Shown piece by piece: positions 49,346 through 53,890 of a stretch of 64,000 nt of DNA. Numbering within the stretch: the first letter of the stretch is position 1; every line of letters starts with the position of its first letter. Location of the stretch: NCBI GenBank assembly GCA_963675665.1, contig OY776510.1, positions 192,001 through 256,000 of the forward strand, given 5' to 3'. Made by a program: the position numbers and the translations under genes. The DNA is from Spirochaetia bacterium. Lineage in GTDB: Bacteria; Spirochaetota; Spirochaetia; UBA9216. The notes beneath the pieces are model-generated. The model searched no databases and was not told where the DNA came from. It saw nothing but the letters and a program-made list of their open reading frames with translations.

Positions 49346-50521
49346 TTAGAGATTCCCATAATTTTTTTCTTTCTCGCCCCGGTTCTCAAGCAAAAGAAAA
49401 ACAACCACCATAAAAATAAACACGGGGGCAACAAGATATGCCGTTCTAAGCCCGAAAAGATCACCTATGACGCCCATTATAAGTATGGCAGCGCTTGTTC
49501 CGGGGATACCGAAACAGGACAGAAAAATCATAATCGCAGTTGCATCCGCATCTATCACCGAAGCAGCATAAGACTGAATACTGGGCCAGAGACATGCCAG
49601 CGTCACTCCCACAACAAAAAGATATATGTAAATCGCCGCCGGACTTTTAATCAGAAAAAAAGAAAAACTTACAAAACTGCCCGTTACAGCAGAAGTTATT
49701 AATAACCGCTTCAATCCCCACAGTTTTGCAAGCTTAACCGAAGCTATCCTGCCGACAGCCATTCCCAGCGCAAAAGCCGCTGATCCGAACGCACCGGCCC
49801 GCGGCAGCATATCAAAATGAATCTGGATATAACTGGCGCCCCAGTATGCATATGCAAATTCTCCTGCGCCTGCAAAAAACATCGCCATACCCAGCATCCA
49901 GAAACGTTTTATTTTCAAAATACCGCCCAGATGCGCAGGGTTGGAGTTTGACGGAGGAAGCTTTGCCTTTTTTACTCCCGGATAGAAACAATAAACTGCC
50001 GCCGCTGACACAGCTACTCCGACAAAAAGAACCCGCCAGGAAACACCCCGGGTCAGAAGTTCTCCGAATACTATTACGCTGAAGCAAATACCTGTCGGCC
50101 AGAACGAATGGAGCAGATTCATTTTTGAACCTCTGTCTTCAGTATGCAAATCATTTACGAGCGGTGTTATCACTGCCTCAATCATTGCGTTGCCGAAACC
50201 TGTAATAACGATCAGACTGACCGCCATAACATATGATCGGCTGACTGCAAAGGCTGCAAGCCCTGCAGCGGTAATAAGCAGGGCAGTCCTCAGCATTCTA
50301 ATCTTTCCGAAACGGGCGGCGCCGAAAATACTCAGGATAAGTATTAACAGCTGTTCAACTGAAGTAACAAACCCGAACATGCCTGCCTGGGTAAGATTGA
50401 TTGAAAATTCTTCAGAGATCTTAACCAATGCAACAGGAATTATATTAACCGACGCGGCATATATAATCATTGTAGCATAGGCACAACGGTCAATCCTTTT
50501 CCTCATTGCTTCACTAATCAT
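49346..50521 (-). CDS. MFS transporter
   Basis: About 12 TM, AARFGK motif-A-like, NLLHSFW, GDLFGLR. Confidence 0.9.
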   Translation of the reverse strand: MISEAMRKRIDRCAYATMIIYAASVNIIPVALVKISEEFSINLTQAGMFGFVTSVEQLLILILSIFGAARFGKIRMLRTALLITAAGLAAFAVSRSYVMAVSLIVITGFGNAMIEAVITPLVNDLHTEDRGSKMNLLHSFWPTGICFSVIVFGELLTRGVSWRVLFVGVAVSAAAVYCFYPGVKKAKLPPSNSNPAHLGGILKIKRFWMLGMAMFFAGAGEFAYAYWGASYIQIHFDMLPRAGAFGSAAFALGMAVGRIASVKLAKLWGLKRLLITSAVTGSFVSFSFFLIKSPAAIYIYLFVVGVTLACLWPSIQSYAASVIDADATAIMIFLSCFGIPGTSAAILIMGVIGDLFGLRTAYLVAPVFIFMVVVFLLLENRGEKEKNYGNL

Positions 50522-50589
50522 AACTGAATTATATACAGTTCCCTGAACTTTTGGTAATATATTCAGAGAAAAATAAAAAAGGACGATAA

Positions 50590-50808
50590 ATGGCGGATTT
50601 CAGCTACACAATAATCAAACACATCGGTGTAATTTCCGAATCACCAAAGGGTTGGAAAAGAGAACTTAATCTGATCTCATGGAACGAAAGAGATCCTAAA
50701 TATGACATCCGGGACTGGGCACCGGACCATGAAAAAATGGGAAAGGGTATTACGCTCAGCAGGGAAGAACTTGATAATCTTGCCGCTATCGTAACCGGGC
50801 TTGATTAA
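50590..50808 (+). CDS. YdbC/PC4-like single-stranded nucleic-acid binding protein
   Basis: GWKRELNLISWN....KYDIRDW.PDH.KMGKGITL. Confidence 0.92.
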   Translation: MADFSYTIIKHIGVISESPKGWKRELNLISWNERDPKYDIRDWAPDHEKMGKGITLSREELDNLAAIVTGLD

Positions 50809-50814
50809 GAATTA

Positions 50815-50846
50815 ATGCTGAAGAACACGATGGTCTTCGGCATTTT
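50815..50846 (+). terminator. Terminator after the ydbC-like gene
   Basis: ATGCTGAAGA...TCTTCGGCAT followed by TTT. Confidence 0.5.
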
Positions 50847-50940
50847 GAAGTTTCCGGACTTTGTTTGAAAACTTCAATTCACTAACCCCATCCATGATGG
50901 AAAATTTTAAAGGAGGAATGATAAAAAGTCTTCATGAGCT

Positions 50941-51093
50941 GGTGAATTGATATACTGCCTTAACTTTAATTGAGGCAGTAAGGTTACTGTTCGACATTTT
51001 TACTGGTCCGCGAGACCGTTTAGGAGATTGAAGAGCCGTAACCGAAACATTCAATGGTCTGCGAGACCGGATAGGAGAATGGAACAATTCACC
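50941..51093 (+). ncRNA. Putative bridge RNA of the IS110 element
   Basis: Closing stem GGTGAATTG/CAATTCACC; 5' hairpin 50953-50980; two internal-loop arms capped by near-identical TGGTC(C/T)GCGAGACCG hairpins (51004-51018, 51055-51069), with loop strands matching the target and donor junctions. Confidence 0.75.
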
Positions 51094-51128
51094 GTATAGG
51101 CACTGCTTCAAACTATTGGAGATAGAAC

Positions 51129-52241
51129 ATGAAGATGAGTATTGGCGTGGATCTTCACAAAACGCAGTTTACAGTATGCCTTTTAAGTGAAGACCGAAAA
51201 ATTGATCAATTGGGAATGTATCCGACCAGCGGAAATGGTTATGGAGCATTTCTGAAAATGCTGGATGAATATTGTGAAGAGGAATATGAGTTGAGAGCAG
51301 CGGTGGAAACAACCGGGAATGCCCGTTATTTCCGCAATAAACTGTTAAAGGCTGGAGTCGAAGTGGTTGTAGTGAATACTTTGAAATTCAAGGTAGTGAA
51401 TGAATCTGTAAAAAAGACAGACAAACATGATGCACGCACCCTGGCGGAGTTTCTTGAGAAAGACATGCTGCCTGAATCGATATTATGTTCCCAAGAGAGT
51501 GAGGATATTCGAAGGGTGCTGAAATCCAGGTCGATACTGGTAAAATCTGTTGTGTCGTTAAAGAACCAGGTGCATGGCTTATTACTTGGTTATGGAATAG
51601 AGACCAAACGCGGACAGCTGCAGAGTAAAAAAGAAAGGCAGCGAATCCTGAACGGTCTCGAGGACCACGACTTTTACGGAAGCGCTGCCAAAACGGTAAT
51701 ACCGTTACTGGATATGATAGATAATCAGGCATCGCAAGTCAAGCAGCTTGAAAAGGTTTTGGCTGAGCTTGTGGAGGACGATGAAGATGTTGAGCTTCTG
51801 CAGACAATACCAGGCGTGGGTCTAATAACAGCAGCAACAGTAAGAGCCTATACAGACGATATCGGCAGATATGATAGTGCGAAGAAATATGCAGCAAACG
51901 CCGGGCTTGTGCCATGGGTGCAGAACTCAAATATGACAATACATCATGGACATATAACAAAGCGTGGGCCTGTAGAACTGAGGACAGCCTTCGTACAGAT
52001 GGTGATGGGAATGGTTCGTATGCAAAAGAAGACCGGGACGTACCGAATAATGACGAAGTATGCAGCGATGAAGAAGCAGAAAGGCTCGGGTAAGAGTGTA
52101 ATAGCTGCCGCCCGCAAGATGAGCACTTTGGTATATACAATTTTAAAAACCAGAGAGCCGTTTGATCCGATGAAAATGGCTTTTAGAAAAGAATACAGGG
52201 AAATGCAGGCAGCAGCATGGGAAGCTGTAATGGTCGGTTGA
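51129..52241 (+). CDS. IS110 family transposase/recombinase (DEDD RuvC-like + Tnp domain)
   Basis: IGVDLHK, VETTG, KTDKHDA, LQTIPGVG, AGLVP...NS (catalytic Ser position), ITKRG...LR, AAARK. Confidence 0.95.
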   Translation: MKMSIGVDLHKTQFTVCLLSEDRKIDQLGMYPTSGNGYGAFLKMLDEYCEEEYELRAAVETTGNARYFRNKLLKAGVEVVVVNTLKFKVVNESVKKTDKHDARTLAEFLEKDMLPESILCSQESEDIRRVLKSRSILVKSVVSLKNQVHGLLLGYGIETKRGQLQSKKERQRILNGLEDHDFYGSAAKTVIPLLDMIDNQASQVKQLEKVLAELVEDDEDVELLQTIPGVGLITAATVRAYTDDIGRYDSAKKYAANAGLVPWVQNSNMTIHHGHITKRGPVELRTAFVQMVMGMVRMQKKTGTYRIMTKYAAMKKQKGSGKSVIAAARKMSTLVYTILKTREPFDPMKMAFRKEYREMQAAAWEAVMVG

Positions 52242-52303
52242 TATCCGACCAGATCATAAGCTTATATTTTTAGCTTGTGGTTGACTTTTTATAGGAGATA
52301 ATA

Positions 52304-53890
52304 ATGTCGGAAATAAAATATCAGAACATAGACAAAACAAAGGCCTTCAGCAAACTGGCTGCAATGAAAAAAATATCACTGAAAGAGCTGATATCTTCAG
52401 CCCGCATAGCTGAGTATTCAATAAACGCCGGCGGAGGGTTAACATATAACTATTCAGCCAAAGCCGTGAACGGGGAAATTATTGATACCCTTGCCGAACT
52501 CAGCCTTGAACAGGAACTGGTTCAGAAATATATGGAGATTCTTTCCGGCACCCGAATGAATACCGGGGAAAACAGAATGGTGCTTCACCAGCTGACACGC
52601 GGTCAAACCGTCTCAAAAGTCACAGAGAACGGCAGAGACCTGGGCGCGTTTTACGCCGAACAGAAGCAGAGGATAGCCGATTTTGCAAACAAGGTGCATA
52701 ACGGCGAAATACTCGGATCTACGGGCAAAAAGTTCGACACGGTAGTACAGATTGGAATAGGCGGTTCGGACCTGGGCCCCAGGGCCCTTTACCTGGCGCT
52801 TGAAGGCTGGGCGGAAGTAAACAATAAATCAATGATGGATGCGCTCTTCATATCAAATGTCGACCCTGATGATGCAACAGCCGTTGCGGCCTCCATTGAT
52901 CCTGAAACAACCCTTTTTATACTTGTATCAAAAAGCGGAACAACCCAGGAAACCCTGACAAACCAGGCATTTGTTCTTGATATCGTCGGGAAAACCGGGC
53001 CGGAAAAGCTTGTGCCTGCAAAACACATGATTGCCGTAACAAGCCAGAGCAGCCCCCTGGCGGAATCCGGAGCCTTCCTTGACAGCTTCTATATTGACGA
53101 TTACATAGGCGGCCGGTATTCTTCAACCAGCGCTGTCGGAGGGGCTGTGCTCAGTCTAGCTTTCGGCCCGGACGTATTTGATTCATTTCTTGCCGGCGCC
53201 CATGATGCGGATGTAAGGGCCCTTGAAGCGGATATCAGGTTAAACGCGGCCCTGATGGATGCAATGACAGGCGTATACGAGCGCAACATTCTCGGTTACC
53301 CGTCTACGGCCGTTCTGCCTTACAGCCAGAGCCTTTCGCGATTTCCGGCGCACCTGCAACAGCTTGATATGGAAAGCAACGGAAAAAGCGTCAACCGATT
53401 CGGCGAACCTGTTGAATACAGTACCGGGCCCGTAATATTCGGTGAACCGGGAACCAACGGGCAGCATTCATTCTATCAGCTGCTTCACCAGGGCACTGAT
53501 ATTGTTCCGCTTCAGTTTATAGGTTTTAAAAGTTCTCAACGCGGTTACGATCTTGAAATCGAAGGCTCAAACAGCCAGACAAAACTGAATGCCAACCTCG
53601 CCGCCCAGATAACGGCCTTTATGCTCGGGCAGGACGACGACAATCCGAACAGGCAATTTAACGGTGGGCGCCCGTCCAGCCTTATTTACGGCTCCGATCT
53701 GAACCCGGAAGCCCTCGGCGCTCTTCTTGCACATTTTGAAAACAAGGTAATGTTCCAGGGACTTGCCTGGAATATAAACTCGTTCGATCAGGAAGGTGTC
53801 CAGCTGGGCAAACTGCTGACCAAAAAACTGCTCGGAGGCGGAGGCGCTTCAGAAACGCTTCAGGCATATTTCAACCTGCTTCAGGAGTAA
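52304..53890 (+). CDS. pgi: Glucose-6-phosphate isomerase
   Basis: IGIGGSDLGP, SKSGTTQET, IGGRYS, QQLDMESNGK, GTNGQHSFYQLLHQG, FDQEGVQLGK. Confidence 0.98.
   Translation: MSEIKYQNIDKTKAFSKLAAMKKISLKELISSARIAEYSINAGGGLTYNYSAKAVNGEIIDTLAELSLEQELVQKYMEILSGTRMNTGENRMVLHQLTRGQTVSKVTENGRDLGAFYAEQKQRIADFANKVHNGEILGSTGKKFDTVVQIGIGGSDLGPRALYLALEGWAEVNNKSMMDALFISNVDPDDATAVAASIDPETTLFILVSKSGTTQETLTNQAFVLDIVGKTGPEKLVPAKHMIAVTSQSSPLAESGAFLDSFYIDDYIGGRYSSTSAVGGAVLSLAFGPDVFDSFLAGAHDADVRALEADIRLNAALMDAMTGVYERNILGYPSTAVLPYSQSLSRFPAHLQQLDMESNGKSVNRFGEPVEYSTGPVIFGEPGTNGQHSFYQLLHQGTDIVPLQFIGFKSSQRGYDLEIEGSNSQTKLNANLAAQITAFMLGQDDDNPNRQFNGGRPSSLIYGSDLNPEALGALLAHFENKVMFQGLAWNINSFDQEGVQLGKLLTKKLLGGGGASETLQAYFNLLQE

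Follow-up and report, generated by a model that had tools for sequence, protein, structure and literature searches.

The stretch of DNA analysed in this work (called here the window; 64,000 nt, in whose positions all coordinates are given) carries an IS110-family element just upstream of pgi, the gene for glucose-6-phosphate isomerase (52304-53890, plus strand, as are all the features described below; PGI domain PF00342, 2e-120). Counting one copy of AGGAG, the element spans 1382 bp (50916-52297), its limits being taken from the comparison of 15 copies and the crossover lying somewhere within the shared AGGAG; deletion of the 15 copies from the genome sequence removes 1382 bp for each of them. 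Its recombinase gene (51129-52241, 370 aa) contains both IS110 domains, DEDD_Tnp_IS110 and Transposase_20 (PF01548, 9.3e-18, and PF02371, 1.4e-17, each exceeding the curated cut-off). The first-pass annotation of this DNA had pointed out that AGGAG stands on both sides of the element and that removing the element gives back an ordinary ribosome-binding site, and both observations held: the two copies of AGGAG lie at 50911-50915 and 52293-52297, and the right one is followed by ATAATA and the ATG of pgi at 52304. A T-rich tract, together with the AGGAG that belonged to the original Shine-Dalgarno (SD) sequence of pgi and is now at the left junction, forms the left target half (50904-50915), and ATAATA, the spacer, forms with the start codon of pgi the right target half (52298-52306). 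After insertion it is the right end of the element (TTTTTATAGGAG) that supplies the SD sequence to the downstream gene, here pgi.

At its left end the element begins with GAATG (50916-50920), the right donor half, followed by a subterminal inverted repeat of 10 nt (ATAAAAAGTC, 50921-50930) that is 100% complementary to the right inverted repeat (GACTTTTTAT, 52283-52292). The latter lies inside the right end (TTGACTTTTTATAGGAG, 52281-52297), which also includes a -35-like TTGACT and the left donor half ATAGGAG, and the 10-bp repeats stand on both sides of a 10-bp junction core. Within the left repeat there is a TAAAAA (50922-50927) preceded by TG, and when the ends are joined on paper TTGACT is followed after 17 nt by TAAAAA with TG ahead of it, both hexamers being located in the most conserved termini. 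TG and TAAAAA are likely to represent the extended -10 of a putative circle-junction promoter, TTGACT-N17-TAAAAA. A promoter scan yielded 3 sites against 3.2 expected, leaving internal promoters unsupported, and no terminator-like site was found from the upstream gene through the element to pgi; we infer that the element is co-transcribed with its host gene.

An empty pgi allele had been predicted to read AAAGGAGATAATAATG. In seven of seven relatives (five of the same genus and two of the same family) a PC4-like gene adjoins pgi with SD-N6-7-ATG and the element is absent. The sequences of these relatives differ, however, from AAAGGAGATAATAATG, and therefore no empty allele of the same strain was found.

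Fold of the non-coding left end

The left end of the element is non-coding over 213 nt upstream of the recombinase gene and folds with an energy of -63.9 kcal/mol (z = -4.45) into a structure with two internal loops. This fold is conserved: the consensus of 39 sequences shows compensatory changes in 22 of its 32 pairs, and its invariant G-U pairs are compatible with the plus strand alone. No Rfam model matched positions 50500-52800 at E values up to 1. A 5' stem-loop (50955-50978), present in the fold and in the consensus fold, is followed by loop 1, formed by a 5' strand (CATTTTTACT, 50995-51004) whose final T forms the closing U-G pair of the hairpin in the consensus fold, a hairpin GGTC-CGCGA-GACC with compensatory changes (51005-51017), and a 3' strand (GTTTAGGAGA, 51018-51027). 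The guide strands of this loop had been placed at 50995-51002 (CATTTTTA) and 51019-51027 (TTTAGGAGA), where we also found them, and the bottom strand across the pgi start (CATTATTA) indeed agrees with the 5' strand at seven of eight positions. Loop 2 is built likewise from a 5' strand (AACATTCAAT, 51046-51055), in which CATTC (51048-51052) pairs with the left-end GAATG, a hairpin GGTC-TGCGA-GACC (51056-51068; pair types AU 20 / GC 19 and CG 22 / UA 14), and a 3' strand (GGATAGGAGA, 51069-51078) of the same sense as the ATAGGAG of the right end, both this strand and the right end being invariant across the element family. A further putative pairing site lies within the coding sequence of the recombinase (51646-51667); it is complementary at 20 of 22 positions to the hairpin and 3' strand of loop 1 and is conserved.

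Insertion sites of the element

The genome contains 15 near-identical copies of the element (at least 99.9% identity), and the element was also found in two other samples of the same organism, in contig runs that gave no coverage of the pgi flanks and showed neither an empty allele nor a circle junction. All 15 lie, with the same two junction types, between an NNAGGAG SD sequence and an ATG located 5-7 nt further 3' (6 nt in 12 of them), all are oriented with the downstream gene, and their left flanks differ from one another upstream of NNAGGAG. The downstream genes include several of central metabolism (pgi, KDPG aldolase and a 2-oxoacid dehydrogenase subunit), and Pfam domains start within a few residues of the ATG in 13 of the 15 ORFs. 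When the genome is freed of the IS, it contains 200 T[AT]TAGGAG sites, 57 of which show an ATG at +5 to +7 and, behind it, an ORF of 60 codons or more, whereas the occupied sites with this motif belong without exception to this SD-ATG class (12 of 12; hypergeometric P = 1.2e-7), and a spacing of 6 nt is found at 10 of these 12 compared with 30 of 77 background sites (P = 9.6e-4). The insertion-site pattern is far beyond chance. Selection against insertions within ORFs must add to the SD bias, the two being not separable here. Among the relatives, ATG occurs 5-8 nt past AGGAG in 101 of 113 sites (the spacing ranging between 5 and 9 nt with an optimum of 6) and is absent within 10 nt in six of the 113.

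Covariation between guides, targets and donor ends

We parsed 143 elements, 15 from this genome and 128 from genome and metagenome contigs, leaving aside 20 loci, L080-L094 and L096-L100, that comprised fragments as well as recombinases of 32-41% identity, and took as null the guides shuffled among lineages (2000 shuffles). The 3' strand of loop 1 (G-NNN-AGGAGA) matched the left flank in proportions of 0.80, 0.94 and 0.97 at positions -7, -6 and -5, respectively (115 pairs), against 0.30, 0.49 and 0.88 for shuffled guides, and the observed values at -7 and -6 were reached by none of the 2000 shuffles. For example, in one genome the guide TACAGGAGA is accompanied by TACAGGAG flanks in 6 of the 10 copies, and in another the guide CAAAGGAGA is accompanied by (A/C)AAAGGAG flanks. 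The covariation that had been expected between guide and target was thus present on this side, and also on the start-codon side described below; in the genome under study, however, the guide mismatches the left flank at -7 in 10 of the 15 copies, these flanks resembling the right end of the element. The constant AGGAG and ATG parts escape the covariation test except in a few variant lineages, where CACGGAG guides occur with CACGGAG flanks (L161 and L168).

On the start-codon side, the 5' strand of loop 1 starts with CAT in nearly every lineage, and the analysis covered the lineages with such a CAT-initial strand, the first ATG being the anchor. Complementarity between positions 4-7 of this strand and the four bases before the ATG was 0.533 against 0.367 for permuted guides (0/2000), and 0.469 against 0.318 (0/2000) when one site was taken per lineage. 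At sites with a spacing other than 6 nt it was 0.56 against 0.39 (0/2000) with the ATG as anchor, and 0.45 against 0.36 (55/2000) with AGGAG as anchor. Where position 6 of the guide is C, G occupies -3 in 8 of 12 cases, compared with 5 of 89 for guides with T. This complementarity amounts to only about 0.5 per position in sequences that are A/T-rich and of low complexity, and the shifted-register controls gave 0.41-0.45 against 0.33-0.39, with 6 to 235 of the 2000 shuffles reaching the observed values; the identity control for this signal was null. The signal at spacings other than 6 nt holds only with the ATG as anchor, and the earlier reading of CATTTTTA across the start codon was therefore right in kind, although the last three positions of the strand (8-10) showed no covariation in any register tried. 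Registers in which the 5' strand was anchored on AGGAG (offsets 8-12) were rejected as weaker than the ATG anchor, and a match of guide position 9 at offset 9 was an artefact of a constant target base.

On the donor side, loop 2 matched the element ends in proportions of 0.90 against 0.48 and 0.90 against 0.59 (0/2000 in both cases), with seven covarying variants of the right donor half and the loop 2 5' strand (GAATG/CATTC, GTATG/CATAC, GCACG/CGTGC, GCATG/CATGC, GAGTG/CACTC, GAACG/CGTTC and GTACG/CGTAC). AGGAG is common to donor and target and is covered by both 3' strands; the loop 2 5' strands read the GAATG right after AGGAG, and the bases that come next in these strands (AA, AC, CA, GA and others) show no complementarity to AGGAG. 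Covariation hence assigns loop 1 to the target and loop 2 to the donor, as the first-pass annotation had assumed, and its view of the target loop as a consensus translation-initiation signal gains support from the covariation with the left flank and with the bases before the ATG.

Miniature derivatives

About 17 miniature derivatives that keep the ends of the element were found in the genome, tandem arrays included; they are multi-copy, of approximately 100-160 nt, contain no gene, and are located at the same kind of target. To the left of the IS upstream of pgi lies a degenerate miniature element (50808-50915), consisting of three hairpins and then TTTTAAAGGAG, with the IS at its right end, and relatives of this miniature are found upstream of pgi in two of the seven related genomes. 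Genome-wide there are 37 related repeats, and 5 of the 15 IS copies are inserted at the right end of one of them. In the genomes of three relatives, left-end motifs were not in excess of full copies (11 versus 10, 9 versus 9, and 14 versus 14). Four contig runs compared with 50600-52600 also contained a joint from 50948 to 52278 with six letters between, which resembles a miniature record.

Proposed mechanism of target choice

Taking the junctions, the fold and the covariation into consideration, we regard it as quite probable that this is an IS110-group insertion sequence with a left-end bridge RNA, the target loop of which would spell a translation-initiation region and the donor loop the element's own junction, with recombination taking place within AGGAG. 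By analogy with IS621, the RNA would be made and would guide the recombinase. The two guide strands of the target loop would jointly spell the initiation region, the CAU-NNNN of the 5' strand pairing with the top-strand NNNN-ATG and so covering the end of the spacer together with the start codon, and about 2 nt would be left unread between the two target pairings, in a gap of variable length (spacing of 5-9 nt, optimum 6). Because the guide RNA would read both ribosome-binding site and start codon, the element would land just upstream of genes and leave them unbroken. The donor loop would read the junction of the element's circle, composed of the right-end ATAGGAG and the left-end GAATG, and recombination within the shared AGGAG would make the element enter 5' UTRs in a single orientation, that of the gene, the right end giving the SD sequence back at its original distance from the ATG.

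It could be argued that the bridge RNA reads only the SD side (NNAGGAG), the link to the start codon arising from the loss of intragenic insertions and from A/T-rich spacers. The much stronger covariation of the left flank compared with the start-codon side, the variable spacing and the shifted-register controls that are not null all speak for this view, as do the 143 of 200 T[AT]TAGGAG sites that lie outside the SD-ATG class and therefore leave room for selection. We nevertheless consider it unlikely, as the ATG anchor outdoes the AGGAG anchor at spacings other than 6 nt, the identity control is null, the non-T guide bases track their complements, the spacing of 6 nt exceeds that of the genome's own SD sites, and CAT is invariant in loop 1, whereas the corresponding positions of loop 2 both vary and covary.

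A choice of site by protein contacts, in which the recombinase would recognise the arms GACTTTTTAT and ATAAAAAGTC together with similar T-rich and A-rich arms of SD sites, the RNA adding 2 nt, would account for the subterminal repeats around the junction core and for the motif TTTTTAT, matched at six to seven of its seven positions by 8 of the 15 left flanks against 88 of 6556 AGGAG sites overall in a stretch that runs past the reach of either guide strand. This resemblance can be put down to the T-rich context being common at SD sites here and at the right end of the miniatures; moreover, the left flank past -8 is not T-rich in other hosts, and guide covariation is present on both sides, all of which makes such a mechanism very improbable. 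Even harder to credit is that the target would be a repeated extragenic element, a miniature or leader hairpin, as in REP-targeting IS110 members: the 37 related repeats and the five copies at their right ends fit this idea, but 10 of the 15 copies lie away from such repeats, and in the three relatives lacking an excess of left-end motifs the copies are still found at SD-ATG sites.

A broader version of the bridge-RNA reading is possible though somewhat doubtful. It holds that the RNA has a distinct architecture, with a polarity that mirrors that of IS621 and with guide halves that do not overlap at the core and read SD sequence and start codon across a flexible gap; that the right end serves as a portable ribosome-binding site, by which each insertion would regenerate the target and make tandem arrays possible; that these arrays and miniatures mobilised in trans would rewrite 5' UTRs throughout a genome; and that the complementary site in the recombinase gene may act as a third loop-like module in RNA-RNA autoregulation.

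Comparison with known elements

According to the available text of Durrant et al. (2024; PMC11208160), the left end of IS621 encodes a structured RNA, roughly 200 nt long, that forms a 5' stem-loop and two internal loops with a hairpin set into each; all four IS621 guides include the core dinucleotide, and the targets are REP elements. Our element shares with that description (PMC11208160) the DEDD and Transposase_20 recombinase, the left-end RNA with its 5' stem-loop and two hairpin-interrupted loops, the use of the first loop for the target and the second for the donor with one strand per DNA strand, and, for the promoter predicted here, a -35 in the right end with a -10 in the left end. Unlike IS621 as described there (PMC11208160), the layout is a mirror image, in which the 3' sides read in the same sense as the left halves and each 5' side is the reverse complement of a right half, and the swap of the guide sides leaves the donor site in inverted orientation with respect to the element's genes. 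Further differences from that description (PMC11208160) are that pairing of the 5' strands appears not to extend into the shared core, that SD-ATG regions take the place of REP elements as targets, AGGAG and CAU being constant in the guide, and that the proposed gap between guide pairings is variable, for which that text offers no precedent.

Fixed-orientation insertion between SD sequence and start codon, seen here in 15 of 15 copies, has been reported for the IS110-family elements IS900 and IS901 of Mycobacterium avium (PMC2942039, citing in the text available Doran et al. 1997 and Inglis et al. 2003). The targeting of translation-initiation signals by IS110 members is hence not new (IS900, 1997). 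In our literature search, 'bridge RNA' and 'IS900' occurred together in no paper. To our knowledge, no RNA guide was known when IS900 and IS901 were described; the transposase of IS900 reportedly points against the target gene, whereas the recombinase gene here points with it. In the seekRNA elements of IS1111 and IS110 type (for example ISEc11), the target is set by a short RNA from a non-coding region, each IS or group having its own target; subterminal inverted repeats mark the IS1111 group and not the IS110 type, and the RNA of the IS1111 group is located 3' of the gene (Siddiquee et al. 2024, PMC11187229, available text). Unlike that group (PMC11187229), our element has its RNA upstream and yet possesses 10-bp subterminal inverted repeats, and the available text of the same paper makes no mention of an SD target. 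The search yielded no paper that ties bridge RNA or seekRNA to SD or start-codon targets; SD-like targets or loops of mirror type may already be on record in the supplementary target-motif data of Durrant et al. or in figures of the two 2024 papers. The miniatures are similar to MITEs in being short, gene-less and multi-copy and in keeping the IS ends, but differ from MITEs with plain terminal inverted repeats in that their ends are the two donor halves read by the RNA, and in that their tandem arrays fit a target regenerated by each insertion. No clear precedent for IS110-derived miniature elements came out of the search.

These results suggest an explanation by base pairing for the landing of IS110 elements between ribosome-binding site and start codon, and point to a natural bridge RNA that would be aimed at a generic functional signal rather than at a single locus, with the constant guide letters (AGGAG and CAU) defining the class of sites and the few variable letters selecting a subset. 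For the design of bridge recombinases, the element may offer the other loop polarity and an apparent tolerance of gaps between the guide pairings. In the genome under study, a transposon is placed ahead of the central-metabolism genes named above and would return to them a ribosome-binding site, and the same element may also seed miniatures into 5' UTRs.

Insertion of the element at translation starts

The element upstream of pgi (window 50916-52297, plus strand) carries a recombinase ORF at 51129-52241 with both IS110 domains (PF01548 and PF02371), which is directly followed by pgi, and is preceded by a gene for a PC4-like protein of 72 aa (window 50590-50808; PF02229, 1.9e-12). The genome, a single contig of 5.15 Mb, contains 15 copies with at least 99.9% identity, and all 15 present the left junction ...NNAGGAG/GAATGATAAAAAG, the right junction ...TTGACTTTTTATAGGAG/N5-7-ATG and a downstream ORF in the orientation of the element. 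Removal of the 15 copies in silico shortened the genome by 1382 bp per copy and left NNAGGAG-N5-7-ATG at each site. The downstream genes include pgi, KDPG aldolase, a transketolase-like E1 beta subunit and a dihydrolipoamide-dehydrogenase-like protein, and in 13 of the 15 ORFs a Pfam domain begins within a few residues of the ATG, which is therefore a real start codon. The Shine-Dalgarno (SD)/ATG junctions that the first-pass annotation had described for the pgi copy are hence those of every copy.

Taking the genome without IS copies as background, we found 200 sites with the motif T[AT]TAGGAG, 57 of which are followed at +5 to +7 by an ATG opening an ORF of 60 codons or more; each of the 12 occupied sites with this motif belongs to these 57 (P = 1.2e-7). 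The spacing between SD and ATG is exactly 6 nt in 10 of the 12 occupied sites versus 30 of the 77 T[AT]TAGGAG sites with ATG at +3 to +10 (P = 9.6e-4). Selection against in-gene insertions must add to the first enrichment and is less likely to account for the spacing bias. An empty pgi allele was sought in seven relatives with a pgi match (five of the same genus and two of the same family): in all seven the PC4-like gene and pgi are kept as a pair, with pgi coming directly after an SD, 6-7 nt and ATG and no element between them, but the letters of the site in these other species differ from those predicted. No empty allele of the same strain was found, and two further samples of the same organism that contain the element gave no cover of the pgi flanks. 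In a sample run of the same organism, X3, contigs across the junctions at window 50913 and 52297 have flanks absent from this genome, one right flank lacking an ATG within 10 nt, a possible sign of an off-type insertion.

Predicted fold of the bridge RNA

The left end (50916-51128) folds with -63.9 kcal/mol compared with -45.6 in shuffled sequences (z = -4.45). The predicted RNA comprises a 5' stem-loop, a target loop (loop 1: 5' strand CATTTTTACT, hairpin GGTC-CGCGA-GACC, 3' strand GTTTAGGAGA) and a donor loop (loop 2: AACATTCAAT, hairpin GGTC-TGCGA-GACC, GGATAGGAGA), the two loop modules being a 39-nt direct repeat with 77% identity. In an alignment of 39 sequences from diverse relatives, 22 of the 32 consensus pairs show compensatory changes and several invariant G-U pairs are compatible only with a plus-strand transcript; no Rfam family matches this RNA. 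The 3' arm of the 5' stem-loop can alternatively pair with a stretch that shortly precedes the ribosome-binding site of the recombinase gene (columns 79-89 with 231-240 of alignment A2; window about 50970-50979 with 51104-51114). This pairing, with many compensatory changes, is either an alternative structure or the closing stem of the whole RNA.

The recombinase gene contains a 22-nt site (window 51646-51667) that is complementary at 20 of 22 positions to the hairpin and 3' strand of loop 1 (51004-51025). At least 16 of 22-23 letters are complementary in 33 of 67 lineage representatives, mostly at the same gene position (CDS nt 517), with perfect complementarity (22/22) in one relative, L110, and in distant lineages the hairpin at the site is maintained through compensatory changes. 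The antisense of this site resembles a third loop module in sequence and is closely preceded by a promoter-like site on the minus strand (51742-51714; 10/12), of a kind that occurs here at chance frequency.

Covariation between guides and target sites

Relatives' loci were gathered from genome contigs (80) and, through recombinase alignment A1, from metagenome contigs (80). After excluding L080-L094 and L096-L100 (fragments or 32-41% identity) we examined the 15 own copies, 60 genome-contig loci and all 80 metagenome-contig loci, among which loop 1 at least, if not both loops, could be parsed in 143 elements; these provide 139 distinct element-site pairs. Their hosts are, by record titles, Spirochaetia, Desulfobacterota-type MAGs and others. 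All these elements share a near-constant right end, TTGACTTTTTATAGGAG, and a near-constant left end of the form G-N-A-Y-GATAAAA.

The left flank and the 3' strand of loop 1 read in the same sense. One Oceanispirochaeta MAG has the strand GTACAGGAGA, and six of its ten copies have flanks ending TACAGGAG, with C at -6 in nine; in a Syntrophales MAG with GCAAAGGAGA, eight of nine flanks end in AAAGGAG. We dropped pairs with fewer than 10 flank letters, a strand not ending GGAGA or a flank not ending GGAG, and in the remaining 115 pairs (24 distinct strands) guide and flank agreed at positions -9 to -5 with frequencies of 0.17, 0.36, 0.80, 0.94 and 0.97, compared with 0.20, 0.26, 0.30, 0.49 and 0.88 when guides were shuffled among lineages; the observed agreement was reached in none of 2000 shuffles at -7, none at -6 and six at -5. 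Two metagenome loci, L161 and L168, have CACGGAGA in the 3' strand and CACGGAG left flanks, so the RNA also reads letters of the seemingly constant part. Both have a 5' strand without CAT, L161 lacks a downstream ATG, and the two resemble natural cases of a guide reprogrammed away from start codons.

The 5' strand of loop 1 starts with CAT in nearly all lineages (exceptions include L076 and the two loci just named). In the 113 pairs that have this CAT start and no fewer than 13 letters of flank, the distance from AGGAG to the first ATG is 5 nt at 17 sites, 6 nt at 62, 7 nt at 12 and 8 nt at 10, and six sites have none within 10 nt. Anchoring on the ATG (107 pairs, 40 distinct strands), positions 4-7 of the 5' strand were complementary to the four bases before it with frequencies of 0.48, 0.55, 0.56 and 0.54 (permuted 0.27, 0.35, 0.40 and 0.45), a mean of 0.533 versus 0.367 that no permutation of 2000 reached. 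Shifting the register by -2, -1, +1 and +2 gave 0.41-0.45 versus 0.33-0.39 (6, 9, 94 and 235 of 2000 permutations reaching the observed value), scoring identity instead of complementarity gave 0.215 versus 0.237, and a single site per lineage gave 0.469 versus 0.318 (0/2000). For the 45 sites with spacing other than 6, the ATG anchor yielded 0.561 versus 0.387 (0/2000), and 0.450 versus 0.361 (55/2000) when spacing was taken as 6. Guide C at position 6 is accompanied by G at -3 in 8 of 12 cases and guide T in 5 of 89; for guide G at position 4, the base at -1 is C in 14 of 47 cases as against 3 of 45. Positions 8-10 showed no covariation in any register tried; the U at position 10 is constant and forms a pair with the 3' strand's first G. 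The 7/8 match noted at first pass, between CATTTTTA and the bottom strand over the pgi start codon, is thus an instance of a real rule, the ATG-anchored covariation, but site by site the match is only partial. The covariation on both the left flank and the start-codon side supports the interpretation that loop 1 encodes a translation-initiation signal.

The donor side

In loop 2 the 3' strand, (G/A)ATAGGAGA, runs in the sense of the right end, which is constant, and the 5' strand covaries with the five letters that open the left end (GAATG/CATTC, GTATG/CATAC, GCACG/CGTGC, GCATG/CATGC, GAGTG/CACTC, GAACG/CGTTC and GTACG/CGTAC), with agreement at +2 and +4 of 0.90 and 0.90 compared with 0.48 and 0.59 when permuted (0/2000; 30 distinct combinations). 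The donor site, TATAGGAG-GA-ATG, thus resembles a translation start in compressed form. The presumed circle has a 10-bp junction, AGGAGGAATG, bordered by perfect 10-bp subterminal inverted repeats (window 50921-50930 and 52283-52292; ATAAAAAGTC and GACTTTTTAT); according to the seekRNA paper (PMC11187229) such repeats mark the IS1111 group and not the IS110 type, to which the present element nevertheless belongs. At L050:2599-2700 the right end is tandemly duplicated, with two GGTTGACTTTTTATAGGAG about 30 nt apart before the downstream ATG. Decayed copies (L049, L156, L072, L081 and L077) lack either loop 1 or the greater part of the left end and retain loop 2 and the right end.

Donor-like left flanks and miniature elements

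Ten of the 15 own copies have A in the left flank at -7 against guide U, and eight have flanks matching the element's TTTTTAT at 6-7 of 7 positions, a match that 88 of all 6556 AGGAG sites attain; in L102, L105 and L106, metagenome relatives that share the 3' strand, the left flank is TTAGGAG, as expected. Outside the 15 copies there are 21 more GGAG/G-N-A-Y-GATAAA sites, about 17 of which, by eye, start elements of 100-160 nt that have the first 11-20 left-end letters in common with the IS, contain three internal hairpins and finish in (A/G)ACTTTTTATAGGAG. A strict pattern yielded 13 complete miniature elements, 10 followed by ATG at 5-9 nt and three directly by a full copy, and a profile of their right half yielded 37 sites in the genome. 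They lie between the SD and ATG of genes (on the genome contig, for example, at 3764696, 4930166 and 894936; window 50808-50915), sometimes right before a full IS or in tandem, as the three at 2973060-2973365 on the minus strand; tandem arrays are what a target regenerated at each insertion predicts. Five of the 15 full copies, that at pgi included, sit at the right end of a miniature element, and this family is part of the explanation for the odd left flanks. Three relatives' genomes showed no excess of left-end motifs (left/right-end counts 11/10, 9/9 and 14/14). Half-match recombination has been reported for IS621 and may be relevant to the donor-like flanks.

Relation to known elements and consequences for the host gene

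In IS621, as described in PMC11208160, the core is included in all four guide pairings and the left donor is placed in the right end. The layout here is its mirror: the left halves share the sense of the 3' sides, and the right halves, reverse-complemented, give the 5' sides. With the target turned over the layout becomes that of IS621 and the shared AG reads CT, but the element's genes then point the opposite way. Furthermore, what the 5' strand of loop 2 reads is the five letters that immediately follow AGGAG, and its next letters are not complementary to AGGAG, so that, unlike in IS621, this strand appears to leave the core uncovered.

Both the kind of element, an IS110 bridge-RNA element, and its behaviour, SD/ATG targeting, are already known: Plague 2010 (PMC2942039) cites Doran et al. 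1997 ('IS900 targets translation initiation signals...') and, for IS901, Inglis et al. 2003. Our literature search found no paper joining 'bridge RNA' with 'IS900', and literature on IS110 or bridge RNA with ribosome binding site, SD, start codon or translation initiation yielded no SD-reading bridge RNA; the target section of the seekRNA paper mentions none. The base-pairing explanation and the unusual loop layout are, as far as these sources go, not previously described, and the figures or supplements of PMC11208160 may show such variants.

The joined ends, as read from their sequence, would form TTGACT, 17 nt and TAAAAA with TG before it, a predicted arrangement that fits the junction promoters described for the family in PMC11208160. 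Between the upstream gene, the element and pgi no terminator-like sites were found (1.5 expected), which suggests that the element is probably co-transcribed with its host gene, and read-through transcription could still reach the downstream gene. Upon insertion the right end would supply TTTTTATAGGAG in place of the lost left target half, so that the gene would retain an SD at unchanged distance.
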